A DNA stretch of 64,000 bases from Pseudobdellovibrionaceae bacterium. Lineage in GTDB: Bacteria; Bdellovibrionota; Bdellovibrionia; Bdellovibrionales; UBA1609. The notes below the pieces were generated by a model that did not search any database, was not told where the DNA came from, and saw only the letters and a program-made list of their open reading frames with translations. Numbering within the stretch: position 1 is the first letter of the stretch; every line of letters begins with the position of its first letter. Where the stretch lies: positions 152,152 to 216,151 of the forward strand of contig JABJQG010000020.1 in the NCBI GenBank assembly GCA_018663505.1. The letters run 5' to 3'. Positions 42,175 to 63,692 of the stretch are shown one piece after another. The position numbers and the translations under genes were made by a program.

Positions 42175-42190
42175 TGGGCAAACTTGCCCA
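42175..42190 (-). promoter_or_regulatory. P1: 16 bp palindrome TGGGCAA-NN-TTGCCCA, candidate operator
   Basis: Read towards the 41764..42096 gene it is GTGGGCAAGTTTGCCCATAGTTTATT. This is nearly identical to P4 including the asymmetric 3' flank. Confidence 0.55.
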
Positions 42191-45799: not shown

Positions 45800-45815
45800 C
45801 GGGCAACTTTGCCAA
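45800..45815 (-). promoter_or_regulatory. P2: palindrome variant TTGGCAAAGTTGCCCG, candidate operator
   Basis: Read towards the gene it is ACGTTGGCAAAGTTGCCCGCAATA. This matches P5 at 23 of 24 positions. Confidence 0.5.
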
Positions 45816-46073: not shown

Positions 46074-46089
46074 CGGGCAGGATTGCCCA
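46074..46089 (+). promoter_or_regulatory. P3: degenerate palindrome CGGGCAGGATTGCCCA, candidate operator
   Basis: 70 nt upstream of the LRR gene start. Followed by TAGATTT, like P1 and P4. Confidence 0.45.
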
Positions 46090-46159: not shown

Positions 46160-47068
46160 ATGATAAAAAAAATATTTACAATCACAGCATTATTAAGTTT
46201 TACGTTAAATGTCCAGGCACATATAAAAGTAACACCTGGAAAGTGCTTTCAGTTTAACATGCTTGGAAATGGTTTAGAGATCACACATTATGACACGTCA
46301 TGCTCAAAGGATGTTGTAATACCACGTGAGGCGAGCGGGAGAGAAGTTGTAAGCATTGGGGAGTCTGCTTTTAGTCGACAAGAGCTGACCTCAATATTAA
46401 TCCCAGAAAGCATCAAGGTAATTAAGTCATGGGCATTTGCTAGTAATAAGCTAAAAACAGTTGAAATTCCAGACAGCGTGACGAAAATCGGTGAAGAGGC
46501 ATTTAATAGAAATAATCTGGAGTCTGTTAAGATTGGAGTGGGCTTAACTGAAATTGAGTATGGTACCTTTGCTCGCAACAGACTAACCTCAATCGATATT
46601 CCAGGTAATGTAAAAGTTATTGGGTGGGAAGCATTTACTGATAATATGTTAGGTACGTTGGTATTACCGTATGGAGTTACGAATATTGAAAGAGATGCAT
46701 TTAGCTACAATAAATTAACTTATGTTTATCTTCCTGATAGTGTTAGATCGATTAAACATCAAGCATTTCTAAAAAATAATCTTATCACCATAAATCTCCC
46801 TGATAGCCTAACATACCTTGGAGGAAGTGCTTTTGCTTATAATGACCTAGTTTCAATTGTAATACCTGTGGGGATCACAAAAATTAGAAGAGCTACATTT
46901 CTTTCAAATAAATTAAGATCAATTGTAATTCCAGATAGTGTAACCTCTATTGCGGAAAGGGCTTTTTCATATAATTATTTAAGAACAGTTGAAATTCCAG
47001 CTAACACTTCGATCAATGAGCAAGGGTTTGATTCATTTGATGATTTTGTCAAAATTATTAGAAGATGA
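46160..47068 (+). CDS. BspA-type leucine-rich repeat (LRR_5) protein, secreted
   Basis: 302 aa. Signal peptide. About 10 tandem ~23-aa repeats of the type IPxSVxxIGxxAFxxNxLxS. Confidence 0.8.
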   Translation: MIKKIFTITALLSFTLNVQAHIKVTPGKCFQFNMLGNGLEITHYDTSCSKDVVIPREASGREVVSIGESAFSRQELTSILIPESIKVIKSWAFASNKLKTVEIPDSVTKIGEEAFNRNNLESVKIGVGLTEIEYGTFARNRLTSIDIPGNVKVIGWEAFTDNMLGTLVLPYGVTNIERDAFSYNKLTYVYLPDSVRSIKHQAFLKNNLITINLPDSLTYLGGSAFAYNDLVSIVIPVGITKIRRATFLSNKLRSIVIPDSVTSIAERAFSYNYLRTVEIPANTSINEQGFDSFDDFVKIIRR

Positions 47069-47219: not shown

Positions 47220-47375
47220 TAGTTTGACCTGCGCCCCTCTGCTGAGACACTGTCCAGGATTCATTCAGGTTTATAGTTAAATTTTGAATGCTAAATCTTT
47301 CTAATAAATCGGTGGACTTTTTCTAAACTAGTAAATTTAGATACCTGAAAATCAATGTTTTGAATCACAGAGAAG

Positions 47376-47432
47376 AAAGGTACTGACACACTTCTGAGAC
47401 ACGGTGGGTCTCAGAAGTGTGTCAGTACCTTT
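47376..47432. repeat. B1: type B perfect hairpin (25 bp stem, 7 nt loop)
   Basis: AAAGGTACTGACACACTTCTGAGAC-ACGGTGG-GTCTCAGAAGTGTGTCAGTACCTTT. I verified the arm complementarity base by base. Confidence 0.9.
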
Positions 47433-47436
47433 CCTT

Positions 47437-47456
47437 CAACCTGTTTATTTATCATT
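47437..47456 (+). repeat. E2: second copy of the 20-mer CAACCTGTTTATTTATCATT
   Basis: Identical to 46029..46048. Confidence 0.75.
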
Positions 47457-47484
47457 TGTTTTCCGACTGTGAAAAAAATATAGG

Positions 47485-47500
47485 TGGGCAAACTTGCCCA
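47485..47500 (+). promoter_or_regulatory. P4: 16 bp palindrome TGGGCAAACTTGCCCA, candidate operator
   Basis: 128 nt upstream of the second LRR gene. Perfect 7 bp arms. The flank ATAGTTTATT is shared with P1. Confidence 0.55.
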
Positions 47501-47628
47501 TAGTTTATTGTAGATCAATTTTTGTTTTCATCTACTCTTATGATATATTACATTTTAAGAGCGTGATTAAAATTTTCTACTCTTGAATAAATATTTAGAA
47601 AATATGAACAAAATGAAAAGGATATTTT

Positions 47629-48240
47629 ATGAAAGAAATTATTTTTGGATTAACACTTTTGACCTCACTGATATCATTTGGGGAGGTACCTGGCAGTACT
47701 GAACATATTGAGCCTGGCGCCTTTTCTAGCCTAATATCTCTTGAGCAGGTCGATCTTAGCAACGCAAGCTCACCGACCACCCCTACTGAGTGTTTTCAAT
47801 TTGCTGAACTCGAAAACGATATTATTATTACTGCTTATTTTCAATGGAGGGGTGATGAATGCACAAAGGATGTTTCAATACCTTCTCATATTAATGGTAA
47901 AAGAGTTACCACTATCGGGTATAAAGCACTTAATGAATTAGGGCTTACATCTTTGAAACTACCTAATACTATAACTTTAATTGAAGGTTATGCATGCTCT
48001 CAAAACAACATCAAAGACTTGGTAATACCGAGCAGTGTCATTTTTATTGGCTATGGTGCTTTTTTAAATAATCCTCAACTATCTAAGTTGACTCTTTCTG
48101 GTCAACTTAAAGTGATTAGCAATCGGGCATTCAGAGATACTAATTTAAGTACTATAGAAGTTTTCCATTTAACACAAGAGAACTCAGATTCGTTTGATGA
48201 CGACGTAGAAATTGTAAAGAAATATACTCGTGAATTTTAG
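47629..48240 (+). CDS. BspA-type leucine-rich repeat (LRR_5) protein, secreted (short paralog)
   Basis: 203 aa. Shares ECFQF..C.KDV.IP....G..V..IG and a C-terminal DSFDD.V.I block with the 46160 gene. Confidence 0.75.
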   Translation: MKEIIFGLTLLTSLISFGEVPGSTEHIEPGAFSSLISLEQVDLSNASSPTTPTECFQFAELENDIIITAYFQWRGDECTKDVSIPSHINGKRVTTIGYKALNELGLTSLKLPNTITLIEGYACSQNNIKDLVIPSSVIFIGYGAFLNNPQLSKLTLSGQLKVISNRAFRDTNLSTIEVFHLTQENSDSFDDDVEIVKKYTREF

Positions 48241-48322
48241 AATTAAAAGCTTGTAACTCAAATGACTTGGTATCAACCTAATCTTGGACCGATGAACTAA
48301 GAGAAAGTGATCGGTCCGTAAA

Positions 48323-48359
48323 GCACAGGCCACGAAAAAAATCGTGGCTATGAATCAAG
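48323..48359 (+). repeat. D2: second copy of the 37 nt D module
   Basis: GCACAGGCCACGAAAAAAATCGTGGCTATGAATCAAG. Confidence 0.75.
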
Positions 48360-48399
48360 GATTTTCCACAATTAATATTGCTCAAAAATTCATAGTTAC

Positions 48400-49815
48400 T
48401 TAATCGAGCAAATCATCTAACACATCAGAGATTTCTTTTTTTATTTGCTGATGTCCATTTTTAGAAGCCTCATTTAACGAACTAAATCCGAAATGTTTTA
48501 GAAGCATCTTCCTCTGAGGTAAGCTCAATAGATATCTTATAGCTTGTAAATTTCCTTTGGCTGACATTATATTAAGCACAGATCTATTGCTATTGCCAAC
48601 AGCCAAAATATTTGCCCCACCCTCAATAGCTAGTTTGATCCCCGCTAAATTGTTGTTGTGAGCTTCTAGTAATAGTTCGATATTATTTACATTCTCTGCC
48701 AGCTTATCCATGCCCAAAAGACTGCTATATTCTTCAAGCCAGCCCCCAAGACCCCTAAGACTCCGCGCTCCTTCCCAGTATGCAAGTACAAGCTTTCTAT
48801 CATTAAATTCAATCGAAGAACCGTCACAAGACTGTTTTTCGACCACTGATTCAACTCGAAGCCTTTTACGTTCAGCGGCATTTAAGGTGCTTATCATTTC
48901 TATAAATGCGATCGACTTCTCACTGACAGGTGTATATCTTACTTTTTCAATAATTTCCCAAAAGGTTTTGTACTCAGGTTCATGCATATATGGACCCAGG
49001 CTTTCATAATCATACCCATTATTTATTTTACAATTTATTTCTTCGCCATTAGAAGAAGTGAAGCAAAGTCCACGTCTATAAATAAACATTTTCCTTAGTC
49101 CTAACAAAACCTTATTAATCTCTTTAAGTGTTAGAATATCATGCAAGCTTTTTTCGAGATCATCATACATCCAGCTCAAATGACTCTGTCTTATTTCAGT
49201 GAATGGTATAAAGAATTTTTTAAAGGATTCTCTGGCTTTTCGAGTTAGAGGGCAGATATTTTTAAGGGGAAGGCCTTCAATAATTGGATCCATACTATAT
49301 GCCCTTATGGAAGCTAACGCCTCATGGTTGTTTTTCACTGGTTTGAATAACTCCCAATATACAGAATTAAAATCCACGGCATCATTAGCTGAATTGTAGG
49401 GTTTATTATATGATATGAATTTATTTAAAAGTTTATTTATGAGTTCATCAGAAATACTTTGATAGTTCTTGTTTAAGTTTCTTTTTCTATAAAAATAATT
49501 TAAGTCATAGTAAAGGTTTAAAAGAAAGAAATGATCAGAAAATACATAACCATTTTGATGTGGACTATGTGCGTATGTATGTGCTGAATGCTTCCCTGTA
49601 ATAAAAAAATCTCTGAGACTGGGATCTATGAATTTATCAGGACTATCTGCTCCTAAAGATATAAGTAAATCTCTCCCATTCAAAGTGCGGCTAGAATGCC
49701 CTCGGCCCACCAAGGGTCCTATAACAAAATTTTGATATGATCTATCATAGGCTGTTGCATTTTGTAAAAAGAGAAAGAAGGAGTAAAAAAAGATTAGGTT
49801 AAATTTATAGTTCAT
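48400..49815 (-). CDS. secreted hypothetical protein with C-terminal ankyrin-like repeats
   Basis: 471 aa. Signal peptide ..LQNATA. C-terminal LLEAHNNNLAGIKLAIEGGANILAVGNSNRSVLNIMSAKGNLQAIRYLL is ANK-like. Confidence 0.5.
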   Translation of the reverse strand: MNYKFNLIFFYSFFLFLQNATAYDRSYQNFVIGPLVGRGHSSRTLNGRDLLISLGADSPDKFIDPSLRDFFITGKHSAHTYAHSPHQNGYVFSDHFFLLNLYYDLNYFYRKRNLNKNYQSISDELINKLLNKFISYNKPYNSANDAVDFNSVYWELFKPVKNNHEALASIRAYSMDPIIEGLPLKNICPLTRKARESFKKFFIPFTEIRQSHLSWMYDDLEKSLHDILTLKEINKVLLGLRKMFIYRRGLCFTSSNGEEINCKINNGYDYESLGPYMHEPEYKTFWEIIEKVRYTPVSEKSIAFIEMISTLNAAERKRLRVESVVEKQSCDGSSIEFNDRKLVLAYWEGARSLRGLGGWLEEYSSLLGMDKLAENVNNIELLLEAHNNNLAGIKLAIEGGANILAVGNSNRSVLNIMSAKGNLQAIRYLLSLPQRKMLLKHFGFSSLNEASKNGHQQIKKEISDVLDDLLD

Positions 49816-50097
49816 TCTATCCGTCCAATTTATAAAGGCTTTAAAGTATTCATTACCAATATTTGGAATAAAGTTAACACGAATTGACCTTGATTGTGTC
49901 TGCGTAAAAAGTTCGTTTTATCTTTTTTCTGGTGATTTTTCTTGGGTCGAAGATATTTTGACTATGAAGTCCTGCTTGTAGTCCCCTACTTTTTATCCTG
50001 TATCTATTTAATAGCTCAGCTAAACTGATATGCACAAAACCCAGTAAGCTCTTCTATGAGCGTAGGAGTACCACTTCTATTGATGACTAGACTGTTG

Positions 50098-52236
50098 TTA
50101 ATTTTCTTTTAACAGTCCACTTTGACAGATTTTCTGTTGATACACAGGAAGTAAACTAAAGTTTTTCTTACATGTTGGGAGGTTATTTTTTACTGCTTGT
50201 TTAAATAGCCTTTCACTTTCTGAAGGCGGTTCATTTTCTGCCGTCTGAAAAGGCTTACTTGATCTGTAGAGACTATAGAATTTACTGGGAGTACTTAATA
50301 AATCAATAATAAAATTTTCGTCTTCAGCCTCTGCTGTTTTCACTGAATTACCGTAAGACAAAATTTTATCTGTACCCACGGTAACTCCCACACCTGAATA
50401 CATTGCTACACTATCTGCAGCCAATTGAGATTCATTATTTTCATTATTTTTGTTATAGTTATTTGCAGTAATGGCTGTCCCTGTTGTGATTAAACCTAAA
50501 CTAAGTTTATCCTTACCTGAAACTTTTTTAAATAGGCTACCATCTTTAAATTTACTCACAGGATCCTTGGCCGCTTTTACAGCAGCTAGACTAAAACTTT
50601 TAGCTTTCACTCCCATTGCTTCCATCAGGCGTTGCCCACTAATAGGTTTTATTTTTTTAGCAGTCTCAATGGGCCGAATAATCTTCAAGCCATTACTTAA
50701 TGTACTAAACCCCAGTTTGCCCCATTTAACCTGTGGAAGAAGCGATGCTATGGCAATTAAGGCTCCAGCACTGTCTGAAAGAATATTTCTTAATTCATCA
50801 CTAGATTTTTTATCAGAGACTCGGTCTAAGTATTCACAAAGTTTGTCACTTAATGCTGGATTTATGATAATTGCAGCAATACTTTCGTTGGGATAGTATT
50901 TAAAATTTTCCACTAAACGTTTTAATGAGTCGTCTATCTGACCTTCTATTGAAGTCGGCAGGTAGTCCAGCTCCATCCTTTGAAGGTTTTTTTTTCGAGT
51001 GTTCCTTGGGTTTCGTTTTTTATTAGCATTTTCATTTAAAGAAAGGACTTCATTAACCTTATCAAAGGATTGCTGTGCCTGCTCACTAGAGTAATTCAAT
51101 GCACTTTTTAGTCCTTTTAGTCTTTTCTGTAAGAGTTCTTCATATCTGTGGGCACCATATTCTGGGGCATACTGATCATAACTATGTTCTTGAGTACCTA
51201 TGGAGCCTTGGACCTTAACCCTCTTAATTACTTTTTTCTTTTTTTCATCTTCTAATAAAAACTCAAGCGCAATATTATAAGGAGAATCTCCTAACTCCTT
51301 AAGGATAAGCTTGGAAAGATGACGAGAGTTTCCAATCTTATTACTTACATCTTTTCCATCTACTACAAGATAAGATCTAACCTTTTGAGTAGCAGGGCTA
51401 TAGTCAGCATATGCTTTGCATCGAGGGTAACAACTTAATAACTTTCCATCACCCAATAATTTAAGTTTAACTTTCAATTTTTTATTAAGGGCCTTTAATT
51501 TTAAATTCTCCAATTGGTTCGCAAACTTGGCTATCCTTTCATATCTACTTTCAAAATCTACATGCAGATCAGAAAAATTATCATATTCACTTCCCTGGTA
51601 AAAGTACCCTTCTTTTTTCTCACACGAAAACTCAAAGTAAGTATCTTTTTTTTCGGAATATTTGTATTTCATAAAAGGTCGATCTTCACACTTATTATAT
51701 TTTAAAAACTCATATTCCTCTAAAACAGCACTTAGTGAACTAATATCATTTGCATTCTCAGAAGTAACTGCATCTAAACTTTGTAAGTTAATTTTTTCAA
51801 GATTTATTGCGTCTTCTGCTGGACTTGATAATTCTTCAGAAAATTCAAACTTTATAGTATCTATTTCAACTTGATTGTTCCTGAGGTTTCGTTTATGCAG
51901 CTCACAACTATTATAAGAACCCATTTTGCTAAGGGTAGAAGCGAAACTTTTAAGCTCTTTTCTTGTGCATATCATAAATTTGTTATACAATTTTTCTGAA
52001 AAATTGATCCTCTCCTTTAAATTTTTAAAAAGAGAATATCTCTCTTCGGACTGTTTGCCGCCTTTGGCTTTCAATTTTTCAATTTCCACATCAATTTGTC
52101 TTTTCATTTCTGGCACATTAATTTTTTCAATTGGGTAATTATCAAGAACATGCATTAGAGCTAAACTGTCATCCGCAAAAATTGAATAACTAAAAACTAA
52201 AAAAACTAAAGAGAGTAGGTATTTCCTTAAGAACAT
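50098..52236 (-). CDS. large secreted hypothetical protein
   Basis: 712 aa. Signal peptide MFLRKYLLSLVFLVFSYSIFA. Lys/Glu-rich, no recognised domain. Confidence 0.55.
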   Translation of the reverse strand: MFLRKYLLSLVFLVFSYSIFADDSLALMHVLDNYPIEKINVPEMKRQIDVEIEKLKAKGGKQSEERYSLFKNLKERINFSEKLYNKFMICTRKELKSFASTLSKMGSYNSCELHKRNLRNNQVEIDTIKFEFSEELSSPAEDAINLEKINLQSLDAVTSENANDISSLSAVLEEYEFLKYNKCEDRPFMKYKYSEKKDTYFEFSCEKKEGYFYQGSEYDNFSDLHVDFESRYERIAKFANQLENLKLKALNKKLKVKLKLLGDGKLLSCYPRCKAYADYSPATQKVRSYLVVDGKDVSNKIGNSRHLSKLILKELGDSPYNIALEFLLEDEKKKKVIKRVKVQGSIGTQEHSYDQYAPEYGAHRYEELLQKRLKGLKSALNYSSEQAQQSFDKVNEVLSLNENANKKRNPRNTRKKNLQRMELDYLPTSIEGQIDDSLKRLVENFKYYPNESIAAIIINPALSDKLCEYLDRVSDKKSSDELRNILSDSAGALIAIASLLPQVKWGKLGFSTLSNGLKIIRPIETAKKIKPISGQRLMEAMGVKAKSFSLAAVKAAKDPVSKFKDGSLFKKVSGKDKLSLGLITTGTAITANNYNKNNENNESQLAADSVAMYSGVGVTVGTDKILSYGNSVKTAEAEDENFIIDLLSTPSKFYSLYRSSKPFQTAENEPPSESERLFKQAVKNNLPTCKKNFSLLPVYQQKICQSGLLKEN

Positions 52237-52557
52237 AAGCTCTATTTCGGTGACTTTTTTTTAAAACAAAATAGGCAACAGGAAACACGACTAAGGGCCA
52301 TGCAAATGAAGATAAGGTGTAACCCTGGAACTCTGCCTGTCACCTTTGCTTCACCCGGGAAGACTCTCAACTTGTTATACTGGCTGGACCTCACACTTAC
52401 TACGAAATTCAGTGATTTGGTTGAGTTCTTGAATTACCCCTAATGCTCCTCTAAAAGGGTAATTTCTAGACAGTTTGGTGACAATTATTGGCTTAACAAA
52501 TTAATTGATTAATCCATTAATTTTATTTGAAAATAGCAGGTCTAGAAACAATGTTTA

Positions 52558-52573
52558 TGGCCTTTGCCTTGCA
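52558..52573 (+). promoter_or_regulatory. sigma-54-like -24/-12 element TGGCCTTTGCCTTGCA
   Basis: GG and GC are at the canonical spacing of TGGCAC-N5-TTGCA. Lies about 40 nt upstream of the ATG at 52614. No enhancer-binding protein gene is visible in the window. Confidence 0.3.
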
Positions 52574-52613
52574 TATTAAAATGTATGGTTTTAAACAAAT
52601 TGAGTAAAATGAG

Positions 52614-53777
52614 ATGAATTTAATGACAATAATACCCAATTCTAAAAAAATTAGATGGGTCCTTCTGCTATTTATAGTTTTTTTACAAGCATTACCATAT
52701 AAAGCACATTCTTCTTTAAGTTGTAAGATACTTTTTTCTGGACTTAAAATCTCTGAATTTGGTGATGGAGGGGTTACAGTAAACAATGTCGCTGTTACAG
52801 GAAAATACGAATACAATACCTATACTGTAGCACAAAATCTGAAATTAAAAACAGAAGAACTTACTGAGTGGGCTTCCAATGACTTAAAAGTTCTTTCCAT
52901 AGCTGAAGGGGTTAGTGGCCTATTGCCAACAATGCTAAGTTACGGTGTCAATGCTAAAGCATTAGACTTATGGTACAATGGTAAGGATTACGTTAATAAT
53001 CATATAGGTATTCAAATGTTTGAATTTGTCCAAAATTATAGAAATTACCTAATTCGTGGAGATGCCAGATCAATGCCCATTGAAAGTAATTCTATTGATA
53101 TAGTTCTAAGTCATAGACTTTTTAATAACATAAATAATAATTCTGTAATGGAAGTCGTTTACGATGTCCTTAGAATATTAAAACCTGGAGGAGAAGCTCG
53201 ATTTGATGCTAGTCCTGAAACCGCAAAATACGTTTTGAGAGAATTAGATTTAATTGAACAAAAAGATACAATTTCTTCATTTGAAAATAATTTACTCATT
53301 ATAAAAAAATTAGGTTCAAGAAAGGTTCATGAAATCAGTTTTCCAAAACAGAAGTCCATTCATATTTCACAGATCACACCAATTGTCCTCGATCTTTCTA
53401 TCGAGAGAATTGACAAAGATGACATTGGTTCAATTCATATATCAAAGCTTAGGCCCCTTGAAAAAAAGTCTGATCACCATGAGGATAATTATTCAAAATT
53501 AGACGAATCTATGTTTTCAGATTATTTTTATGTTGCCATGAAGGCAGGTGATATATTAAATATTCATGGGGTTACTAATGAATATGCAAAGGGAATTAAG
53601 ATTTTAACTGAGGCGATTTATGATGGCATTTTTGATATTAAAATTGTAAAAGACCCTTTTATTCCTAAAAAAATTGTTAACACAGATAATAAAAGTATTT
53701 CTGACACAGGGCTAACTGATTTTAGCCATCAGTTTTCTGATTTAGGTATATTAACTATAGAACGTAAAAAAAACTAA
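52614..53777 (+). CDS. class I SAM-methyltransferase-like protein with signal-like N-terminus and unknown C-terminal half
   Basis: 387 aa. VLSIAEGVSGLLP (atypical motif I), SIDIVLSHRLFNNI and VLRILKPGGEARF resemble Methyltransf_11-type blocks. Confidence 0.45.
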   Translation: MNLMTIIPNSKKIRWVLLLFIVFLQALPYKAHSSLSCKILFSGLKISEFGDGGVTVNNVAVTGKYEYNTYTVAQNLKLKTEELTEWASNDLKVLSIAEGVSGLLPTMLSYGVNAKALDLWYNGKDYVNNHIGIQMFEFVQNYRNYLIRGDARSMPIESNSIDIVLSHRLFNNINNNSVMEVVYDVLRILKPGGEARFDASPETAKYVLRELDLIEQKDTISSFENNLLIIKKLGSRKVHEISFPKQKSIHISQITPIVLDLSIERIDKDDIGSIHISKLRPLEKKSDHHEDNYSKLDESMFSDYFYVAMKAGDILNIHGVTNEYAKGIKILTEAIYDGIFDIKIVKDPFIPKKIVNTDNKSISDTGLTDFSHQFSDLGILTIERKKN

Positions 53778-53836
53778 ATTTATTTTTTAGTGATAACCAT
53801 TATCCCATCAAAATAAAAATTTATATTAAAATCTAA

Positions 53837-53886
53837 GTTCCAACTTATTTATGGGATGCAGTGAGTCCCAAAAGTGAGCTGGCACT
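53837..53886. repeat. A1: type A hairpin, degraded left arm
   Basis: Intact loop and right arm: ..TATGGGATGCAGTGAGTCCCAAAAGTGAGCTGGCAC. The left arm reads GTTCCAACTTATTT, about 10/14 identical to the consensus arm. Confidence 0.7.
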
Positions 53887-53924
53887 TTTGCATTTTGGGC
53901 TGTCGAGCATGTAGAAAATACACG

Positions 53925-53940
53925 TTGGCAAACTTGCCCG
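53925..53940 (+). promoter_or_regulatory. P5: palindrome variant TTGGCAAACTTGCCCG, candidate operator
   Basis: 90 nt upstream of the third LRR locus. ACGTTGGCAAACTTGCCCGCAATA matches P2. Confidence 0.5.
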
Positions 53941-54030
53941 CAATAAATTTATAAAAACTTTTCAATTAACCCAAATTAGAATCAACTCGTGTTAGAATAT
54001 GTCAAATTAATTTAAATCAAGGAAAATTAT

Positions 54031-54519
54031 ATGATTAAGATTGTTGTCAGTCTAATAACATTAGTTAATATCTTTGCCTATGCCGACACTGACTACAAAA
54101 TGCAGGTAATATCAAGCCCAAAAAGTTGCTTTGACTATTATGTATGGAACGATGAAGTTAGAATTAGAGGCTTTAAGAAAAATGGGTTTAATAATACGAA
54201 TTGTTTTCCAGACCTTGTTATTCCTTCAGAAATAGATGGGAAAAAAGTTAGTATTATTTAAGATTCTGCGTTTATAGCTAAAGGGCTTAACTCTGTCATC
54301 ATTTCAGAATATGTGATGTATATTGGAGAATGTGCGTTTTGTGACAATATTCATCTTAGCTCGGTGATATTTTCTGATAGTGCCGCATTATCAATAATAG
54401 GAAGATGGGCATTCATAAATACTAACTTAACGTCTGTAGATGTCCCCTCACATGTTTGGTTTAGAACAAAAGGAACTTTTGAAGACGCCGTTATCATAAC
54501 TAGAAGTAACAGATATTAA
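54031..54519 (+). pseudogene. BspA-type LRR paralog interrupted by one in-frame TAA
   Basis: Track ORFs 54031..54261 and 54313..54519 are in the same frame. Read through TAA (54259-54261) the sequence is ..IDGKKVSII*DSAFIAKGLNSVIISEYVMYIGECAF.., a continuous LRR_5 repeat. Confidence 0.7.
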
Positions 54520-54567
54520 TTTTTTATCTGCATTTGTTTTTTTAAGTCAATTATTTGAAGGAGTAAT

Positions 54568-55701
54568 ATGAAACAGTTTAATTTTTTAATTATTATGTTT
54601 ATTGTTTTCTTACTAAACATTAATTCAGCCTATTCAAATGGCAGCTTTGGTATTAGTTACTCAATAAATATGCCGATAATCCCACAAAAGAAGACAATGT
54701 CTGATAGGTTCGCTTTTTATCAATTTCACAGAGAAGCTATGGGGATCAAAGATAAATATATTGATTATATTTGGGATTACTTAAATAAAAATATTGCTGA
54801 AAACCCTGGTCATACAACTTATGACGAAATAAAGTTAGCTTATATAGATATACTCACAATAACTCAAAAAGAGCCAGATTATGATTATAATAGGTGGTTT
54901 CTAGGCGTCTTGAGATCTCATTACTCCGATGAATATCCCCGTGATTCAGAAAAAAGCTTAATGTTAAATGTGAGTTTTGATGTCAGCCGTATCATTGATG
55001 AAGAGTTCCAATCTAAAATGAAAAGCTTAGCTTTTATATACCCCACATGTCGCATTACAGATAAGAGCAAAACAATGGCATTTAAGCTTCTGGATCATAT
55101 TATTGATATGGAGTCAAAATATAGTAATTTTCTTGCTGGGGACTTTGATTATTATGATTTTGGTATAGATCCTATTTTTCGTGCTGCGCACAAAAAAAAG
55201 AAAATGATCCTAGAGTTTTCTAAATATGAAAACTGCAACAAACCCATTGACAATTTTTGGTCACCTGAGTCACGAGTAATTTATGGTTTGGATAAAATAT
55301 TTCGAGATCTACTGGGGGAAGCCCAATACACTATAACTAAGGCACAAACAGGTATAGACGAATCCTCATGGTTTTCTGAAGAAAGGTCTAGTTATAAAAA
55401 AATGTTAGCTCGAGCACAATATCTCCAAAAAGAATTAACCACCTTACCTGAACTCCATACTGAGTATCTCCCAAAGTTTCTTAAGGCTTACGAAGAAGCT
55501 TTGATCGAGAACAAAGACCAAGCAAACATTAAGTCATCATATTCTGAATTTTATAACAAATCTATAAAGTTTTTTTCAAAGATTTCTTCTAAACCAAAAG
55601 ACGAAAGAAACATTGAGCATTGGAGGCAGTCTCTAGAATCTGCAGCTTTAAATGTGGAATCTTATATTAAAGAAATTAAAACAGACTTGGAGAAGAGATA
55701 A
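54568..55701 (+). CDS. secreted hypothetical protein
   Basis: 377 aa. Signal peptide ..NINSAYS. No recognised domain. Confidence 0.55.
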   Translation: MKQFNFLIIMFIVFLLNINSAYSNGSFGISYSINMPIIPQKKTMSDRFAFYQFHREAMGIKDKYIDYIWDYLNKNIAENPGHTTYDEIKLAYIDILTITQKEPDYDYNRWFLGVLRSHYSDEYPRDSEKSLMLNVSFDVSRIIDEEFQSKMKSLAFIYPTCRITDKSKTMAFKLLDHIIDMESKYSNFLAGDFDYYDFGIDPIFRAAHKKKKMILEFSKYENCNKPIDNFWSPESRVIYGLDKIFRDLLGEAQYTITKAQTGIDESSWFSEERSSYKKMLARAQYLQKELTTLPELHTEYLPKFLKAYEEALIENKDQANIKSSYSEFYNKSIKFFSKISSKPKDERNIEHWRQSLESAALNVESYIKEIKTDLEKR

Positions 55702-56114
55702 TGAAAAAAATACTTTTATTTTTTATACTTCTAACAAATGTTGCCCTAGCTAATGAAAACGAGAGTTCTTTCAGACTTAATTGTATGGTTAACTCCGTTC
55801 AAGATATAAGTAATCAAAGTATATATGAAATTCGATATTCCACTTTAAACGAGTCTGATTTAGGAGAACTTTTTAAAAAAAAGATGAAGCTAGTACAGAG
55901 CCCTAAAGATAAAAAAGAGATTGTAGATCTGAAGCTCCCTGTAGGTGAAGAATTTTACAGCATAGCATTACCAAAGGGTGAATATAATTTTCAGCTAAGG
56001 TTTAGCTTCTGTAGAATATATTGTGATGTTTATGATGCGGACAATCCCAATAGGTGTATAGACTGGGAATGTGCGGAAATGGAGAAAACTGAATTCTGCA
56101 GTGAACGTCCTTGA
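55701..56114 (+). CDS. small secreted Cys-containing hypothetical protein
   Basis: 137 aa. Signal peptide ..NVALA. Its start overlaps the upstream stop (TAATG), suggesting co-translation with 54568..55701. Confidence 0.55.
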   Translation: MKKILLFFILLTNVALANENESSFRLNCMVNSVQDISNQSIYEIRYSTLNESDLGELFKKKMKLVQSPKDKKEIVDLKLPVGEEFYSIALPKGEYNFQLRFSFCRIYCDVYDADNPNRCIDWECAEMEKTEFCSERP

Positions 56115-56125
56115 GCCTGCCCAGT

Positions 56126-56208
56126 AAGCTTAGGTGCCAGCTTACTTAAAGCTTAGGTGCCAGCTTACTTATGGGACGCAGTGAGTCCCATAAGTAAGCT
56201 GGCACCTA
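56126..56208. repeat. A2: type A hairpin with tandem duplication of the left arm
   Basis: The 23 nt unit AAGCTTAGGTGCCAGCTTACTTA occurs twice (56126-56148, 56149-56171). Then TGGGAC-GCAGTGA-GTCCCATAAGTAAGCTGGCACCTA. Confidence 0.9.
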
Positions 56209-56480
56209 GCTACAGTAATCTCTCAAGTATCAGTTTCTCAGAGCCTAAAAATAAAAACCTGTTTATCTAAAATTTATTTTCCGTACAAGTACAAATTCGT
56301 ATTCGTAATTGGAATCGTCTATATACTATACGATTTAGAGTCTATCTCCAGTCGCATAAAATGCTATTGGGTTTTGTTCAAGCTTTTTACACTTAGGTAT
56401 TTTTTTCAATTTTAGTAAATTTCCCCACCTAGAGTATTTAAACTTTGCTATAATGCTTAAAACAGTGAATAGGAGTCTGT

Positions 56481-56765
56481 ATGAGAATCATTTTTTCTTT
56501 AGTTTTTATTTTGTTTTCTATTACATCGAATGCCTCTCAGTATTTCCCTGAATGTGGTGAAAAAGCTGAAAGCTATGCAAAATCAATTGTTTCTGTAGGT
56601 CTTGTACACAAAACAGGTTCAGAGTTTTTGGGAAACAGCATGCTATATTCCAAGGAAAGAGAGTTATCCTTTAAAGTTACGATAGAAGGCAATAGCATTT
56701 GGGAAGTTTACGTTACTAAAAATGACTGCTTGCCTTTAAATTTAAGGCTTTTAGAACGTTTATAA
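56481..56765 (+). CDS. small secreted hypothetical protein
   Basis: 94 aa. Signal peptide ..ITSNAS. Extended -10-like TGCTATAAT at 56446-56454. Confidence 0.5.
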   Translation: MRIIFSLVFILFSITSNASQYFPECGEKAESYAKSIVSVGLVHKTGSEFLGNSMLYSKERELSFKVTIEGNSIWEVYVTKNDCLPLNLRLLERL

Positions 56766-56780
56766 ACCTGAACTAAACCA

Positions 56781-56811
56781 CTTGTTTTCCACGAAGGTTT
56801 TCATCGAAAAG
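56781..56811 (+). repeat. C2: second copy of the 31 nt C module
   Basis: Identical to 47126..47156. Here it abuts hairpin B2 directly. Confidence 0.8.
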
Positions 56812-56861
56812 GTACGGACACACTTCTGAGGTGCCGCGTGTCTCAAAAGTGTGTCCGCACC
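56811..56861. repeat. B2: type B hairpin, imperfect
   Basis: GGTACGGACACACTTCTGAG-GTGCCGCGTG-TCTCAAAAGTGTGTCCGCACC. There are two arm mismatches, and the loop region differs from B1. Confidence 0.75.
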
Positions 56862-56910
56862 TAAGTGTACTATGGGACGCAGTGAGTCCCATAAGTGAGC
56901 TGGCACCTAG
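56862..56910. repeat. A3: type A hairpin with truncated/replaced left arm
   Basis: TATGGGAC-GCAGTGA-GTCCCATAAGTGAGCTGGCACCTAG. Only 8 bp of the left arm is retained, and it is fused to the end of B2. Confidence 0.75.
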
Positions 56911-56923
56911 CTACCTAGATAAA

Positions 56924-57922
56924 CTAAACATTCATTTTTATACGCTTAATTTTATTAGGGAGTTCCTTCCTTAGGTGCTCTAACAACATTGGATTATCTC
57001 TTCTTTGGTAGAGCCAGCCAATCATGCAAATATCTCGTGATAAGACCAGATCAGGAAGAATATCTAAATCTTGATTACTTAAATCAAGATGAGTGTTATA
57101 ACCCATTAGAAGCGCGTCCTTTGCTTGAGCCGCAGCCACATCTCCTATGCGTGAAAAATACATTGTGGATGCATTGAGAATAACAGCTAAATCATACATT
57201 TGAAAACCGTACCCACAGTCATCAAAATCGATGGGGTGTATTATCCCCTTGTGCCAAAGCATATTACCAAAATGTAAATCAGCATGAATTACAGAAAGCT
57301 TTTTTGGGTTATCTAGCTCATATTTTTTCAACTTTAAATAAATCTTCTTTCTAATAGGCTCTAAAACTTTATACTCTTTCGGAAACTCTTTTTTTATGGC
57401 AGATAGAGAACCAAATGTTGGATATTCACCAAGTAATCCTTTGGCATCCCAATATTTTCTATGTATTGATGTAATGGTATTTTTTTGAAGTTTGGCGGTT
57501 AACACACCTATATCAAAAAAATTTTGAGGCTGTTTTTTATATTTAATCTGTCCCTCTTGCCAAAGTAGTACATCACAGTAACGACTTTGCCCTACTTCAG
57601 GTATATATACTTTGGTAAGTAGTTCCCCTGAATTAGATATCAAAGGTTTCTGTATTGGAATATCAGTGTTTTTTGACAAAGAGTTTAGCCACCTTAATTC
57701 TTCTAAAATAGCTTTTTTAGTATGGTAATCATGTCGGTGAATACGCAAAAGGTAACTTTGCTTATTTGTAACTATTTTAAAAGTGGCATTTTCTCCATGA
57801 TTTATAAACTTGAGTTCGTATTTTTTGATTGGATAATGCTTTAATACTTCAACAGCCAAACGCCGCAGTCTTCTCACTTGCGACAAATATGTACTTTCTT
57901 TAAAATTTTTTAGTGAATTCAA
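56924..57922 (-). CDS. aminoglycoside/homoserine-kinase-type phosphotransferase (APH family)
   Basis: 332 aa. VIHADLHFGNMLW (catalytic loop) and IDFDDCGYG (metal-binding) are APH/choline-kinase-fold signatures. Confidence 0.65.
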   Translation of the reverse strand: MNSLKNFKESTYLSQVRRLRRLAVEVLKHYPIKKYELKFINHGENATFKIVTNKQSYLLRIHRHDYHTKKAILEELRWLNSLSKNTDIPIQKPLISNSGELLTKVYIPEVGQSRYCDVLLWQEGQIKYKKQPQNFFDIGVLTAKLQKNTITSIHRKYWDAKGLLGEYPTFGSLSAIKKEFPKEYKVLEPIRKKIYLKLKKYELDNPKKLSVIHADLHFGNMLWHKGIIHPIDFDDCGYGFQMYDLAVILNASTMYFSRIGDVAAAQAKDALLMGYNTHLDLSNQDLDILPDLVLSRDICMIGWLYQRRDNPMLLEHLRKELPNKIKRIKMNV

Positions 57923-58452: not shown

Positions 58453-58962
58453 GTGAATTTAAAAGCTCAACCAATTATAAGAGTAGCAAAACCAGGAGAT
58501 GAGGCAGGAATACATGATGCACATATGCGTTCCATCAGAGAAGTATGTGTTAAGGATCATGGTCCTGAGGAAATCAAGGGCTGGGGCAACCGAGAACTGG
58601 GCGATAGATGGATTGAGCCCATTAAAGAACATCATGTTTGGATTCTTCAAAAAAATGGAGTCATCGAAGGTTATGCTTTTATGCGAATCTATGAAAATGA
58701 AGACAACAAACATAGTCATATCCATGGGCTTTACTTAACTCCCACTGTTCTTGGACAAGGATTTGGTAAAATATTAATGGAAATGATGCTCGAAAAGGCT
58801 AAAATATCAAAAGTTAGCGTCATCCGTCTTTTTTCTTCAATAACCGCACATGAATTCTATAAAAGCTTTGGGTTTATAGACACTGAACCAAAGAAAACTT
58901 TAGAAATAGGTGGTTACCCAGTAACTAGTTATCCCATGAGTCTGGAAACTTCAGATGTCTAA
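58453..58962 (+). CDS. GNAT-family N-acetyltransferase
   Basis: 169 aa from a GTG start. LGQGFGKILMEMMLEKAK is the acetyl-CoA-binding motif A. Confidence 0.75.
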   Translation: MNLKAQPIIRVAKPGDEAGIHDAHMRSIREVCVKDHGPEEIKGWGNRELGDRWIEPIKEHHVWILQKNGVIEGYAFMRIYENEDNKHSHIHGLYLTPTVLGQGFGKILMEMMLEKAKISKVSVIRLFSSITAHEFYKSFGFIDTEPKKTLEIGGYPVTSYPMSLETSDV

Positions 58963-59503
58963 ACTTGATTTATCCCGAGTGAATATTATTGGGTGTAGTG
59001 GTAGTGGAAAGTCTACATTTGCAAAGCGTTTAGCAAAAATTTTGGATTCTAAATTTATTGAAATGGATTCTATTTATTGGGGAAAAAATTGGTCAGAGCC
59101 CACTGATGAAGAACTGTTTGCTAGAATTCAGAGAGTTGTGGATGGCCAAAAATGGGTATTAGATGGTAACTACACGAGAACAAATTCCGTTAAGTGGCCG
59201 AGAACTACAACTGTAGTTTGGATTGACACTCCTTATTTAAAAACAATTTGGCGAGTAACCACGAGAAGCATTAAAAGATTAATTTTTCATCGTGGAGAAC
59301 TATGGGAAGGCACAGATTGTTATGAAAGTTTTAAGCAAACATTTATGTCAAAGAAGTCTGTAATTCTATGGGCTATAAATCAATATGGTCGTTACAACAA
59401 AAGATATGAGGAGCAAATGACAAACCCACCATTTAAACACTTAAAATTCATTCGTCTAAAGAGCCAGAAAGAAATTGAGTTTTTTTTAACTTCCATTGGA
59501 TGA
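58955..59503 (+). CDS. P-loop kinase-like protein (adenylate-kinase / topology-modulation FlaR-like)
   Basis: 182 aa. Walker A IIGCSGSGKSTFAKRLA. Overlaps the GNAT gene by 8 nt. Confidence 0.55.
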   Translation: MSKLDLSRVNIIGCSGSGKSTFAKRLAKILDSKFIEMDSIYWGKNWSEPTDEELFARIQRVVDGQKWVLDGNYTRTNSVKWPRTTTVVWIDTPYLKTIWRVTTRSIKRLIFHRGELWEGTDCYESFKQTFMSKKSVILWAINQYGRYNKRYEEQMTNPPFKHLKFIRLKSQKEIEFFLTSIG

Positions 59504-59537
59504 TCCTGAATACATTGTTAGGCAATGATGTTCTCTG

Positions 59538-59588
59538 GGTGCCAGCTTACTTATGGGACGCAGTGAGTCCCATAAGTAAGCTGGCACC
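59538..59588. repeat. A4: type A hairpin, perfect (22 bp stem, 7 nt loop)
   Basis: GGTGCCAGCTTACTTATGGGAC-GCAGTGA-GTCCCATAAGTAAGCTGGCACC. Complementarity checked base by base. Lies between convergent genes. Confidence 0.92.
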
Positions 59589-59604
59589 TTGGAGTTTTGG
59601 AGTT

Positions 59605-60408
59605 CTAAAGTTCAAAAAAATCTACGCCATAGGAATAGATCGCCTCGTCCTTTGCAGTAGCAGCAATTTTACGGACATCTTCTATGGCTTGAATGAGGAT
59701 CTCTTTCACTTTATGGCTGTCTGATTTCGAAAAAGTTACAACAGATGAATAATGAAGATTTTCAGGCGAAGAAGTAAGGTGGTCTAGCGCTTTCAAACGC
59801 CAATTACGATGATGGCTCACAATTAAAGGGTTCTCATTTGCTAAATGAATTCTGGCTTGGCCAACGTCATAGCTTCCATTTTTTTTAATAATCAAATTAT
59901 TTTTTTCTAAAAAAATAAGACACTCTTTCACTTTAGAAATAGGTGCCGCCAACTTATTAGCGATAGCTTCTGCTGTTGCATACTCTTTAATTGAAGTCAA
60001 AATATGTGTAGCAGCATAAAGCCAGTTACTGTAGTAGATCAATTGAGCTTTTGGGTTTAATTCATAACCTTCTTTGATCCTTTGGCTCAGCACTTGGCTT
60101 TTATTTGTAATTTCCTTAAGTTTATTTTTTAAATATTTTTTGGTATTAGTGGTACCTGCACGCTGTAATAAAACTAAATTAACAAAATAGTCTGTTTCTA
60201 AATCATTAAGTATAAAATACGCACAAACCCCATAGGCTTGGTCAAAACTTAGGTCAGCATTTTTTGCGAGTATTTTAGACAAATAGGCCTGCTGGCATCC
60301 AATTTCATTTGCTAACGCACTTTGTAACCCTCGGCCTTTGTTGGGCTGAGCTAGTATCAAATCTCTTAGGTAATTCACATAGTTAGAATATAAAAATATA
60401 GTTTTCAT
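59605..60408 (-). CDS. putative HTH regulator, TIGR02147/DUF4423-like family
   Basis: 267 aa. The N-terminal Y..YLRDLI......GRGLQSALANEIGCQQAYLSKIL resembles the HTH region of that family. Recognised from memory only. Confidence 0.45.
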   Translation of the reverse strand: MKTIFLYSNYVNYLRDLILAQPNKGRGLQSALANEIGCQQAYLSKILAKNADLSFDQAYGVCAYFILNDLETDYFVNLVLLQRAGTTNTKKYLKNKLKEITNKSQVLSQRIKEGYELNPKAQLIYYSNWLYAATHILTSIKEYATAEAIANKLAAPISKVKECLIFLEKNNLIIKKNGSYDVGQARIHLANENPLIVSHHRNWRLKALDHLTSSPENLHYSSVVTFSKSDSHKVKEILIQAIEDVRKIAATAKDEAIYSYGVDFFEL

Positions 60409-61651: not shown

Positions 61652-62395
61652 TTATATTGGATCTATAATATATACTTCTAGATCCTTTGTTACTATTAAC
61701 CCTTCTGGTTCTATAGAGATTTCAAATGTTTTTCCCTTTACTTTAAATCTAGAATGATCCAGCGTAAAGGGGTACCCAGGGTCATCATGAATCATTAAAT
61801 CTCCGTTAATTTCTTTTGCTAGTGCTTTCATTTCTTTGATGAGCTGTAAATTTATAATACTTTTTTTTTCACTTGAGACTCGAGTGTCCTCTATGAAATC
61901 AAGATATGGCCTTGCTTCAATATATTCACTAACTAATGTCGCTGCTTTTTGACCCAAGTTGTCTGTTAAACCTAAGTTATTTTCAGGATTAGTCCTAAGT
62001 ACTCTTGGTGTATTTGTCTTCAGCTTTAGTTTTCTCATTATTAAATTTAACTGCTCTAAAATATTACCTTCAACTGTAGCAATCTCAAATGTCGTCAACT
62101 TGTTGTACTCACGCCATCCCTTATTTGAAATATATATTTTATGAGTCTCAAAATTTGAAGTGGCAAGATTTAAAATCTTGTACACCCTACCCATAGAACC
62201 CGTACCCAGTATCTGAGGGCTAGGTTGAGATAGTGCTGCAAACGCTCTTATACATTTATTTTTTGATGTACCTGCTAAGCATGTGACTGAAAATGTCAAT
62301 GCTATACATAATTTACAAAAGGAAATCACAAGGGCCTTAACCTCCTTCAATAAATTAGAGTTAATACTGTAGTTTTGCATCATGAGCAATATCAT
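61652..62395 (-). CDS. secreted hypothetical protein with minimal kinase-like motifs
   Basis: 247 aa. Hydrophobic N-terminus. ILGTGSMGRVYKI (Gly-loop-like), LVSEYIEARPY (hinge-like), MIHDDPGYP, terminal VYIIDPI. Weak call. Confidence 0.4.
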   Translation of the reverse strand: MILLMMQNYSINSNLLKEVKALVISFCKLCIALTFSVTCLAGTSKNKCIRAFAALSQPSPQILGTGSMGRVYKILNLATSNFETHKIYISNKGWREYNKLTTFEIATVEGNILEQLNLIMRKLKLKTNTPRVLRTNPENNLGLTDNLGQKAATLVSEYIEARPYLDFIEDTRVSSEKKSIINLQLIKEMKALAKEINGDLMIHDDPGYPFTLDHSRFKVKGKTFEISIEPEGLIVTKDLEVYIIDPI

Positions 62396-62411
62396 GCATT
62401 AAATATGCCAA

Positions 62412-62455
62412 GGTGCCAGCTTACGGGGACGCAGTGAGTCCCGTAAGTGTGTCCA
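62412..62455. repeat. A5: type A hairpin variant, right arm switches to type B-like sequence
   Basis: GGTGCCAGCTTACGGGGAC-GCAGTGA-GTCCCGTAAGTGTGTCC. Pairing is lost beyond about 10 bp. Confidence 0.7.
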
Positions 62456-62472
62456 TTCCTAGCTTGTCTTTT

Positions 62473-62715: not shown

Positions 62716-62771
62716 TTTCCCACCCACCTTTTTGATCTGACACAAGTAACATAGTGCAAAAACAAACAAAA

Positions 62772-62854
62772 GGTGCCAGCTCACTTTTGGGACGCAGTGA
62801 GTCCCATAAGTGAGCTGGCACCTAGGCATTTAAGTGAGCTGGCACCTAGGCATT
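62772..62854. repeat. A6: type A hairpin with tandem duplication of the right arm
   Basis: GGTGCCAGCTCACTTTTGGGAC-GCAGTGA-GTCCCA, then the 24 nt unit TAAGTGAGCTGGCACCTAGGCATT twice (62807-62830, 62831-62854). Confidence 0.9.
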
Positions 62855-62949
62855 CGGTACCTAAATGGAGAATGATCTCCGAGGGATTCCGGACGATACC
62901 AGATTATCCACATACCATAAAACATGAGAATAGTAGCTCAGGAGAAAGT

Positions 62950-63390
62950 ATGATAAAAATTATTTTAGTATTATCGCTCGTATTTACAGTCAGTACATCT
63001 TTTGCAGGAGCTATATTTCAAACACAAAACTATGATGGTGTTCAAGTATATGGTGGAGCAACAGAAGATGTGATTATGACTTCATTTAACAAAAACGGAG
63101 TAAATGTTCCTGTAATGATTACTTTAAAAAATAATCATAAAAACCAGCGGGCCATTGACGTTATCAGCAAGGTTGGAGATGAGAATGAAAAGATTGGGAC
63201 TGGTAAATGTGTAATGGCAAAAAAAGCCATAGTATATACATACACTTTAGCTAGTGAAATGAGTGAAGATGGTAGGTCGAGCAAGGTGGTTACCCAAACT
63301 ATTAAACAAATTGAAAATGGTGGCATAATAATTTCAGGTAGTTCAACAAGAACTTGGAGTAATTATGCAAAATTGAAAAAAACCCAATAG
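62950..63390 (+). CDS. small secreted hypothetical protein
   Basis: The track ORF starts at 62773 inside hairpin A6. ATG at 62950 follows GGAG and gives MIKIILVLSLVFTVSTSFA. Confidence 0.5.
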   Translation: MIKIILVLSLVFTVSTSFAGAIFQTQNYDGVQVYGGATEDVIMTSFNKNGVNVPVMITLKNNHKNQRAIDVISKVGDENEKIGTGKCVMAKKAIVYTYTLASEMSEDGRSSKVVTQTIKQIENGGIIISGSSTRTWSNYAKLKKTQ

Positions 63391-63641: not shown

Positions 63642-63692
63642 GGTGCCAGCTCACTTATGAGACGCAGTGAGTCCCATAAGTGAGCTGGCACC
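63642..63692. repeat. A7: type A hairpin, one mismatch
   Basis: GGTGCCAGCTCACTTATGAGAC-GCAGTGA-GTCCCATAAGTGAGCTGGCACC. Confidence 0.9.

Follow-up and report, generated by a model that had tools for sequence, protein, structure and literature searches.

Paired-arm hairpins of two types in a Bdellovibrionota genome, probably REP/REPIN-like repeats of a RAYT-like transposase lineage

A 64,000-nucleotide stretch of a Pseudobdellovibrionaceae genome (assembly GCA_018663505.1, contig JABJQG010000020.1, positions 152,152 to 216,151; hereafter the window) carries two types of short hairpin, A and B, that differ in sequence while their pairing is retained. We think it likely that these hairpins are non-autonomous 'double-foot' repeats, that is, dimers of a terminal inverted repeat (TIR), comparable to repetitive extragenic palindromes (REPs) and their hairpin-forming doublets (REPINs). 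They would belong to a Bdellovibrionota-wide lineage of HUH/Y1 transposases resembling those tyrosine transposases that accompany REPs (RAYTs), each hairpin family having an enzyme of its own. Ten sites in the window make up the census: one perfect and one imperfect type B hairpin, four complete type A hairpins, two left-truncated type A copies, one A/B chimera, and one solo arm of a third type.

26889 to 26917, minus strand: lone third-type arm, AAAAGGTGCCAGGCATCTTTTGCGGATGC, where the open reading frame (ORF) 26916-27752 has its 3' end
47375 to 47433: type B hairpin B1, arms at 47375-47400 and 47408-47433, 26 nt each and 100% complementary, loop ACGGTGG
53844 to 53886, minus strand: type A copy without the outer left arm; left remnant CTTATTTATGGGAT, loop GCAGTGA at 53858-53864, right arm at 53865-53886
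56131 to 56208, minus strand: type A hairpin of the T11/A41 subtype, core 56156-56206, loop 56178-56184
56810 to 56862, minus strand: imperfect type B hairpin B2, arms GGTACGGACACACTTCTGAGGT and GGTGCGGACACACTTTTGAGAC (reverse complement)
56863 to 56909, minus strand: left-truncated type A copy (A3), loop GCAGTGA at 56879-56885, right arm at 56886-56907 intact
59536 to 59590, minus strand: type A hairpin of the T11/A41 subtype, 51/51 identity with the core 56156-56206
62410 to 62461, minus strand: A/B chimera (A5), left arm GGTGCCAGCTTAC-GGGGAC, loop GCAGTGA, right arm GTCCCGTAAGTG followed by TGTCCATTCC
62770 to 62847, minus strand: type A hairpin with a tandem partial right arm, core 62772-62822, partial right-arm copy and flank at 62832-62847
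63640 to 63694, minus strand: type A hairpin with a single mismatch, A.C in position 19

An earlier note, made from the letters of the window, had described the two hairpin types, and inspection of the sequence agrees with it; none of 100 dinucleotide shuffles matched either arm. Type A reads GGTGCCAGCTCACTTATGGGAC-GCAGTGA-GTCCCATAAGTGAGCTGGCACC and is complete at 56154-56208, 59536-59590, 62770-62824 and 63640-63694. The 7-nt loops, GCAGTGA in type A and ACGGTGG in type B, are as that note gave them, while the stem of B1 measures 26 bp and not 25. All sites are intergenic, with no overlap with real ORFs (B1 was checked against ORFs of at least 120 aa); an ORF listed across the hairpin at 62770-62847 (62773-63390, GTG start) most likely begins later, at a signal-peptide methionine. 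Folded as DNA, the intact hairpins reach -27 to -32 kcal/mol with z scores of -10 to -12 (B1, -31.6 kcal/mol, z -10.5; core 56156-56206, -30.4 kcal/mol, z -12.2; 59536-59590, -26.8 kcal/mol, z -10.0). No target duplications or direct repeats flank the window copies.

The remaining copies are variously damaged. B2 is imperfect, as had been proposed: its arms fail to match at positions 4 and 16 as well as at the apex. The sequence of its left arm, GGTACGGACACACTTCTG, recurs without change in the arms around the transposase gene of L214 (L followed by a number labels a compared contig or locus outside the window). The fusion of A3 to the end of B2 was likewise read correctly: the copy at 56863-56909 adjoins B2 directly, retains just the inner 10-16 nt of its left arm and stops 16 nt short of the 3' end of the convergent gene 56924-57922. 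So was the chimera A5, in which an A-type left arm faces a right arm, GTCCCGTAAGTGTGTCCATTCC, that switches to B-like sequence at the conserved CACTT/AAGTG core; pairing in this copy is confined to the inner stem (z -1.1). The fold of the copy at 53844-53886, which carries the N5-GCR-T motif described below on the minus strand, is no better than that of shuffles (z -0.7). We infer that the truncated, fused and chimeric copies are products of decay and recombination. Partial arms with their flank are also duplicated in tandem, AAGCTTAGGTGCCAGCTTACTTA and GTGAGCTGGCACCTAGGCATT each occurring twice (window 56131-56153 and 62825-62847); at 56131-56148 a partial copy of the left arm and its flank precedes the type A hairpin 56154-56208. 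Doubled arms are common next to transposase genes too (L118, L123, L130, L133, L141, L146 and L211). The solo arm AAAAGGTGCCAGGCATCTTTTGCGGATGC, distant from the hairpin cluster, is similar to arms that flank transposases of clade II, defined below, in L141, L146 and L140.

The unit consists of two inverted copies, placed head to head, of an arm of about 22-29 nt. An arm comprises a foot AAGGT[A/G]C, about seven variable positions and a core CACTT-N-TG-N-GAC, to which one side adds N5-GC. Counting gene-flanking, long and short forms, N5-GC[A/G]-T continues after ..GAC in 27 of about 31 arms. The 51-nt hairpins have this extension on one strand alone; therefore a 29-nt arm runs straight into a 22-nt arm, N5 plus GC making up the '7-nt loop'. 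Such a layout fits an origin from a long or gene-bearing form whose interior was lost at a fixed point. Within the window, N5-GC[A/G]-T lies on the minus strand in 7/7 type A copies and in B2, regardless of the direction of the neighbouring genes. Because all type A copies have one loop, GCAGTGA, and one orientation, the copied unit is the whole hairpin in a single orientation. Single arms with 6 nt of flank fold like shuffles (mean z -0.5; window A and B arms, +0.8 to -0.7). The notion that each arm is itself a classical self-folding REP was rejected on this ground.

The same arms occur in other Bdellovibrionota. A genome-collection scan with a 15-base degenerate arm pattern was permissive, with many chance matches in Streptomyces and others, and only its Bdellovibrionota matches were used. 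Among the matches listed, at least 16 contigs from at least 10 metagenome-assembled genomes (MAGs) of Bdellovibrionales and Bacteriovoracales carry the arm, in the form GGTACGGACACACTT[T/C]TGGGAC, which has 3 or 2 differences from type B. It is found there in 51-nt hairpins with a 7-nt loop (L021, L059, L084, L099 and L112), as the outer arms of near-perfect hairpins of 170-270 nt (L083, L095, L108 and L009) and as single arms, and several contigs per MAG bear arms. Direct repeats do not flank the compared hairpins in these relatives, and viral contigs gave chance single-arm matches only. Other arm types are nested in these hairpins or lie beside them, for example GGTGCCAGGTCC in L095 and L053. 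At L095:1141-1331 and L053:1795-1880 a hairpin of the GTGCCAGGTCCT.. type occupies the apex of a GGTACGGACAC-type hairpin, and such nesting of families suggests insertion into hairpin loops.

What connects the arms to an enzyme is their position beside transposase genes. In the MAG ARS45 an arm adjoins the 3' end of a gene (L047) whose product matches the NCBIfam model REP_Tyr_transpos at its C-terminus, and 22 nt of this arm recur unchanged in a hairpin on another contig of the same MAG (L112). The L047 transposase gene has its stop codon inside arm-like sequence (7657-7672, GGG TAC TGA C = GGTACTGAC, as in the outer portion of the window's type B arm), so that gene end and repeat overlap. 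One of the long hairpins, L108, retains a remnant encoding the transposase C-terminus, and in L118 a homologous gene is bracketed by AAAGGTACGGACACACTTTTCG and its exact inverted copy.

The gene family so identified has 595 cluster representatives at E<1e-10. Its proteins, of about 210 aa, have an invariant NHxH (HUH) motif, RINHVFGGPYK and a catalytic Y-x3-NP. They match REP_Tyr_transpos (NF047646) with E values of 1e-17 to 3e-20 and the NCBIfam IS200 model (NF033573) at 17-22 bits against a cutoff of 55. The sole relative in the PDB is 4ER8, the Escherichia coli TnpA-REP (RAYT), at E 3.7e-11, and precomputed Pfam records on most members list PF01797 alone. Some members are named 'REP element-mobilizing transposase RayT' by JGI, and NCBI gives 'transposase' in Bdellovibrio bacteriovorus.

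At 22 of 28 loci of close homologues, all from metagenomes, inverted repeats of 18-51 nt stand on both sides of the gene, with 100% identity in most cases. Eighteen of these 22 repeats start GGT[A/G/T]C, and 5 of the 6 loci without repeats end at contig edges. The arms vary among loci around a common pattern, A(A)AGGT[A/G]C, about 8 variable bases and C(T)TT. B. bacteriovorus CP102930 (L204) has the gene between GGTACGGACTTACTTATGGT arms, and the same arrangement recurs in L205, L208, L211, L214 and L216; the L214 arm, TAAGGTACGGACACACTTCTGGGAC, is almost type B, and the L216 foot is GGTAG. Less than 7 kb of L208 (3798-10633, a TARA scaffold of 36% GC) holds three RAYT-like paralogues and two arm types. 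One paralogue has mini-palindromes AAAAGGTGCC(N)GGCACCTTTT, the other two have AAGGCGACACGCGACTTTT arms that are oppositely oriented relative to the gene, and the middle one of the three appears degenerate at its N-terminus.

Arm type goes with transposase clade. The earlier note had suggested looking in the genome for two paralogous hairpin-binding proteins or transposases, and relatives supply such a pair: L211 holds two HUH/Y1 paralogues 3.3 kb apart and 29% identical, one with GGTACGGACACACTTTTGGGAC arms (GGTACGGACAC.., B-like) and the other with AGGTGCCAGCCACTTTTCCGGGAT arms (GGTGCCAGCCAC.., A-like). A quick neighbour-joining tree, made without support values, divides by arm type, with GGTACGGAC arms in one clade and GGTRCCAG arms in another. 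Protein distance and arm distance are correlated (rho 0.37, with 0 of 5000 permutations as high), a correlation that physical linkage and shared descent could explain alone.

We propose that when DNA is transiently single-stranded the unit would fold into a hairpin of 22-26 bp, and that the cognate enzyme would recognise the foot and the variable positions, cut, and rejoin the strand. Whole hairpins would in this way be copied to new intergenic sites without target duplication. Type B would be served by an enzyme of clade I (arms GGTACGGAC..) and type A by one of clade II (arms GGTGCCAG..), and the source genome would be expected to carry a clade I gene with GGTAC[T/G]GACACACTT arms and a clade II gene with GGTGCCAGCTCACTT arms. 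Complementarity of the arms would be kept both by the copying of the hairpin as a whole and by intrastrand pairing that permits selection or correction between arms. We infer folding on the single strand, recognition and cleavage by the enzyme (from homology to E. coli TnpA-REP), and the two genes of the source genome.

The mirrored differences between A and B prompted the original reading. Over 22 arm positions the two types differ at seven (4, 6, 7, 8, 10, 16 and 19) and agree at 15; the earlier note had counted eight and 14, and was right that every difference is complemented in the opposite arm. A further mirrored double change lies inside type A, where C11/G41 becomes T11/A41 in the copies at 56156 and 59538. 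For a wider comparison we assembled 34 distinct elements, drawn from the window, from MAGs of Bdellovibrionota and from metagenome contigs: short hairpins and, where an element is long or gene-bearing, its left and right arms. Standard pairs fill 96.5% of cells, against 64.7% in shuffles and 32-45% with slid partners, a percentage inflated by the choice of these elements via their complementarity, which leaves the diversity of pair types per position unaffected. Pairs are changed on both sides at 18/22 stem positions. By cells, 234 are double-changed, 5 are one-sided (G.U-type wobble) and 26 are unpaired, and the observed covariation score was reached by 0 of 500 shuffles. The larger set thus preserves the excess of compensatory changes that the earlier note expected, and the continuum of unpaired A-B intermediates that it had named as evidence to the contrary is not seen among the 34 elements.

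Wobble intermediates are nearly absent, and L205 has the same 1-nt insertion, an extra T, in both arms (CACTTTTTGGGAC). Both observations suggest that copying or correction acting on DNA, and not stepwise compensation alone, maintains the likeness of the arms; mirrored changes need not mean stepwise compensation under selection. It is possible, though on balance we doubt it, that the elements are what we propose while their mirrored changes are automatic, either because the hairpin is a head-to-head dimer of one recognition sequence or because its arms are homogenised by fold-back synthesis, gene conversion or mismatch correction. The mirrored changes would then say little about recognition of a folded strand. 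Besides the twin insertion and the ratio of 5 G.T cells to 234 double changes, this idea draws on gene-flanking arms that, although 700-900 nt apart, are 100% identical over 20-51 nt and strongly different between loci, and on the suggestion that an inverted REP dimer could give rise to a double-foot REP when its centre is deleted (Quentin et al. 2018). However, most copying or correction models need pairing of the arms within a strand anyway, and the single loop and orientation of the A copies point to copying of whole hairpins, not of single arms. There is also one chimera against seven homotypic copies, with its junction inside an arm and not at the loop, and the characterised relatives of the enzyme act on folded single strands.

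Could the folded form be RNA? If the hairpins were host RNA elements, such as bidirectional terminators or 3' stabilisers of mRNA, RNA-structure selection would maintain the pairing with no tie to a transposase. Most copies do lie 16-65 nt from gene 3' ends, several of them between convergent genes; the hairpin at 56131-56208 is placed 40 nt past the stop of ORF 55701-56114, and that at 59536-59590 has a convergent gene on either side (58955-59503 and 59605-60408). Two hairpins, B1 and the one at 63640, come through a simple terminator scan, and an influence of REPs on mRNA stability is known (PMC3733652, PMC6006769). Yet these two, B1 and one A copy, are alone in passing the scan, the T tract being missing from most copies, and the copy at 62410-62461 lies upstream of a gene, 16 nt from the start of the minus-strand ORF 61652-62395. 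Orientation is constant along the chromosome whatever the gene direction, G.U intermediates are nearly absent, Rfam and tRNA scans of the window found nothing, and the same arms bracket Y1 transposase genes. We consider this explanation improbable. Because wobble intermediates are so scarce and orientation is fixed along the chromosome and not relative to genes, DNA fits better than RNA as the folded form; the hairpins may have a secondary effect on transcripts.

Two other classes of mobile element have arms or palindromes of a broadly similar kind. The hairpins could in principle be miniature inverted-repeat transposable elements (MITEs) of a DDE-type insertion sequence, their arms being terminal inverted repeats bound as duplex. 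The long perfect inverted repeats suit this idea, the GGTG..CTTA arrangement loosely resembles the ends of IS1, and an IS4-like DDE gene (DDE_Tnp_1) lies beside a transposase fragment in L203 (ENA ERZ27250627 k119_106840). But target-site duplications are missing at every copy, every gene found between arm pairs is Y1/HUH, and the L203 insertion sequence has different ends of its own and interrupts the Y1 gene. We regard DDE-type MITEs as very improbable. In L203 the RAYT-like gene is 5'-truncated by the IS4-like element, and a 76-nt sequence of that element is repeated at both contig ends. Still more remote, to the point that we give it hardly any weight, is the idea that the hairpins are attC-like sites of an integron-type array of gene cassettes. 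Sites of the attC type are recognised as folded single strands, and the imperfect palindromes here, which vary in central length and stand where small accessory genes have their 3' ends, recall them. The scanned ORFs of 43-64 kb include no integrase or recombinase, however; genes are found in both orientations, the arms go with Y1 genes, and the RYYYAAC/GTTRRRY boxes and extrahelical bases are absent.

A different reading of the same association, which we judge unlikely though not as improbable as an RNA element, takes the family for an autonomous 'hairpin transposon': a phylum-wide Y1 lineage in which the loop of the element's hairpin houses the transposase gene, as opposed to a domesticated RAYT. 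The enzyme would then make the 51-nt hairpins by a precise cut and rejoining at a fixed site, a possibility raised by the constant junction, in which an arm followed by N5 and GC meets the first base of the other arm. Insertion would be strand-specific, all eight orientable window copies pointing one way, and A and B would constitute a natural orthogonal pair of enzyme-hairpin specificities.

Several observations weigh against our proposal that the hairpins are REP/REPIN-like repeats of a RAYT-like lineage. The foot is not the canonical GT[A/G]G: in 34/34 elements a C follows GT[A/G], every left arm having GT at positions 2-3, A or G at position 4 and C at position 5. Folding is limited to the two-arm unit, and in this the single arm is unlike a classical self-folding REP. 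The proteins score 64-72 bits with NF047646, under its curated cutoff of 80. Neither tblastn nor the family hidden Markov model found a Y1 gene within the 64-kb window, Pfam found no transposase or recombinase among 18 ORFs of 43-64 kb, and the transposase genes of the source MAG were not found among candidates picked by source and AT-rich composition; the nearest candidate in composition, L214 (35% GC, B-like arms), is a different organism. Five metagenome contigs over the region revealed no insertion polymorphism and, being 99.97-100% identical to the window, are uninformative on empty sites or strain polymorphism. The selection of elements by complementarity, the unsupported tree and the linkage of arm and gene, given above with the numbers they qualify, belong here as well. 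Taken with the rest, the reading of the earlier note, that of a folded single-strand element in two classes with cognate proteins, is supported, recognition of the folded strand being proposed from homology.

We compared the family with known REP/REPIN-RAYT systems (Nunvar 2010; Bertels & Rainey 2011, PMC3116915; Ton-Hoang 2012; Messing 2012, PDB 4ER8; Quentin 2018, PMC6006769). In REPtrons one REP family accompanies each tnpA-REP gene and co-evolves with it, and a genome may hold several families (PMC6006769). As there, a Y1/HUH gene here lies between inverted copies of a short sequence that is dispersed intergenically as hairpin-forming doublets; several families can coexist in a genome, each with its own paralogue, and repeats co-diverge with the enzyme; and clusters, fusions and decayed copies occur without target duplications. 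Unlike them, the present family has the foot GGT[A/G]C in place of GT[A/G]G, a single arm that is not palindromic, an asymmetric 7-nt spacer (N5-GC), stems near-perfect over 22-26 bp, and a protein that falls under the NCBIfam RAYT cutoff and has a C-terminal extension of about 60 aa of its own. Its host phylum also sets it apart from the described REP/RAYT and TIRtron systems.

The closest parallels in arrangement come from two described groups. Double-foot REPs (TnpA-Y1 subclass 2.4) are long hairpins that begin with a tag and finish with the tag's reverse complement (Quentin et al. 2018, PMC6006769), and the authors suggest that they derive from an inverted REP dimer by central deletion (PMC6006769). 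The relation between gene-flanking arms, long hairpins and 51-nt hairpins in our set resembles that origin model, whereas subclass 2.4 is mainly cyanobacterial and from Bacteroidetes, has GT[AG]G feet and often has REP insertions inside the gene. TIRtrons, with their TIRYT enzymes, have long terminal inverted repeats on either side of a RAYT-like gene (Di Nocera et al. 2013, PMC3733652). Like them, the present genes have one long inverted repeat on each side rather than self-folding REPs; the repeats occur elsewhere as singles, dimers and groups, and a genome may hold several genes with different TIRs. The described TIRs are GGGGWSAS or unrelated, none being of the GGTRC..CTT type, unlike the present arms (AAGGTRC..CTT), and most TIRYTs belong to subclass 2.1 with C-terminal helix-turn-helix or DnaA-like domains, whereas precomputed Pfam here lists PF01797 alone. 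The IS200/IS605 elements (IS608, ISDra2) share HUH/Y1 chemistry and the lack of a target duplication, and their recognition of folded single-stranded DNA and strand-specific insertion would have counterparts here. Their ends are differing subterminal hairpins and not inverted repeats, and it is the whole element that is multicopy, unlike the present elements. The literature yielded no paper on REPs in Bdellovibrio and none describing this family, and Bdellovibrio is absent from the accessible part of the Quentin 2018 supplements. The principle is already known; the family itself appears to be undescribed.

The surroundings of the hairpins offer some further observations. The window has a GC content of 35.5%, and its proteins are GenBank MBT4761145-MBT4761180. 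Genes in the hairpin stretch look accessory: BspA-type leucine-rich repeat (LRR), ankyrin, APH-type kinase, GNAT and DUF4423 proteins and many orphans. B1 is flanked by two BspA-type LRR genes, paralogous and encoding secreted proteins, at 46160-47068 and 47629-48240; after this pair come an ankyrin-repeat protein and several orphan secreted proteins, an accessory, effector-like neighbourhood. A 14-nt palindrome, GGGCAAACTTGCCC, recurs with at most 2 mismatches at five sites (42176-42189, 45801-45814, 46075-46088, 47486-47499 and 53926-53939) in a conserved A/T-rich context, AAAATA..[CT]R[TG]GGCAAACTTGCCC[AG]C, where shuffles average 0.36 matches over both strands. Several of the sites lie 40-150 nt upstream of gene starts, including those of both BspA-type LRR genes, and the palindrome looks like a putative binding site of a regulator. 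GC skew runs from -0.05 to -0.17 over 1-48 kb and from +0.01 to +0.05 from 52 kb on, with a cumulative minimum at about 48-52 kb that could mark a replication landmark or an island boundary; the complete hairpins all lie from 47 kb onwards. Past the end of the window, from about 65.7 kb on (L119:1-2266), a giant gene starts that has no Pfam match on record; its product is listed with 3515 aa for one contig and with 8811 aa for a 237-kb JGI contig from that organism.

The proposed identity would account for conspicuous repeats in a poorly studied lineage of predatory bacteria, and would mean that systems of the REP/RAYT type are widespread in Bdellovibrionota, the cultured B. bacteriovorus included. 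For annotation, the hairpins are not to be confused with terminators, small RNAs or CRISPR-like repeats, and they are likely break points in MAG assemblies. For the enzymes, the family would provide a natural series, with dozens of variants each accompanied by a perfectly matched arm and at least one genome in which two divergent pairs stand side by side; the specificity code of these single-strand DNA enzymes, a GGTRC foot and about seven variable positions, would thus be directly testable.

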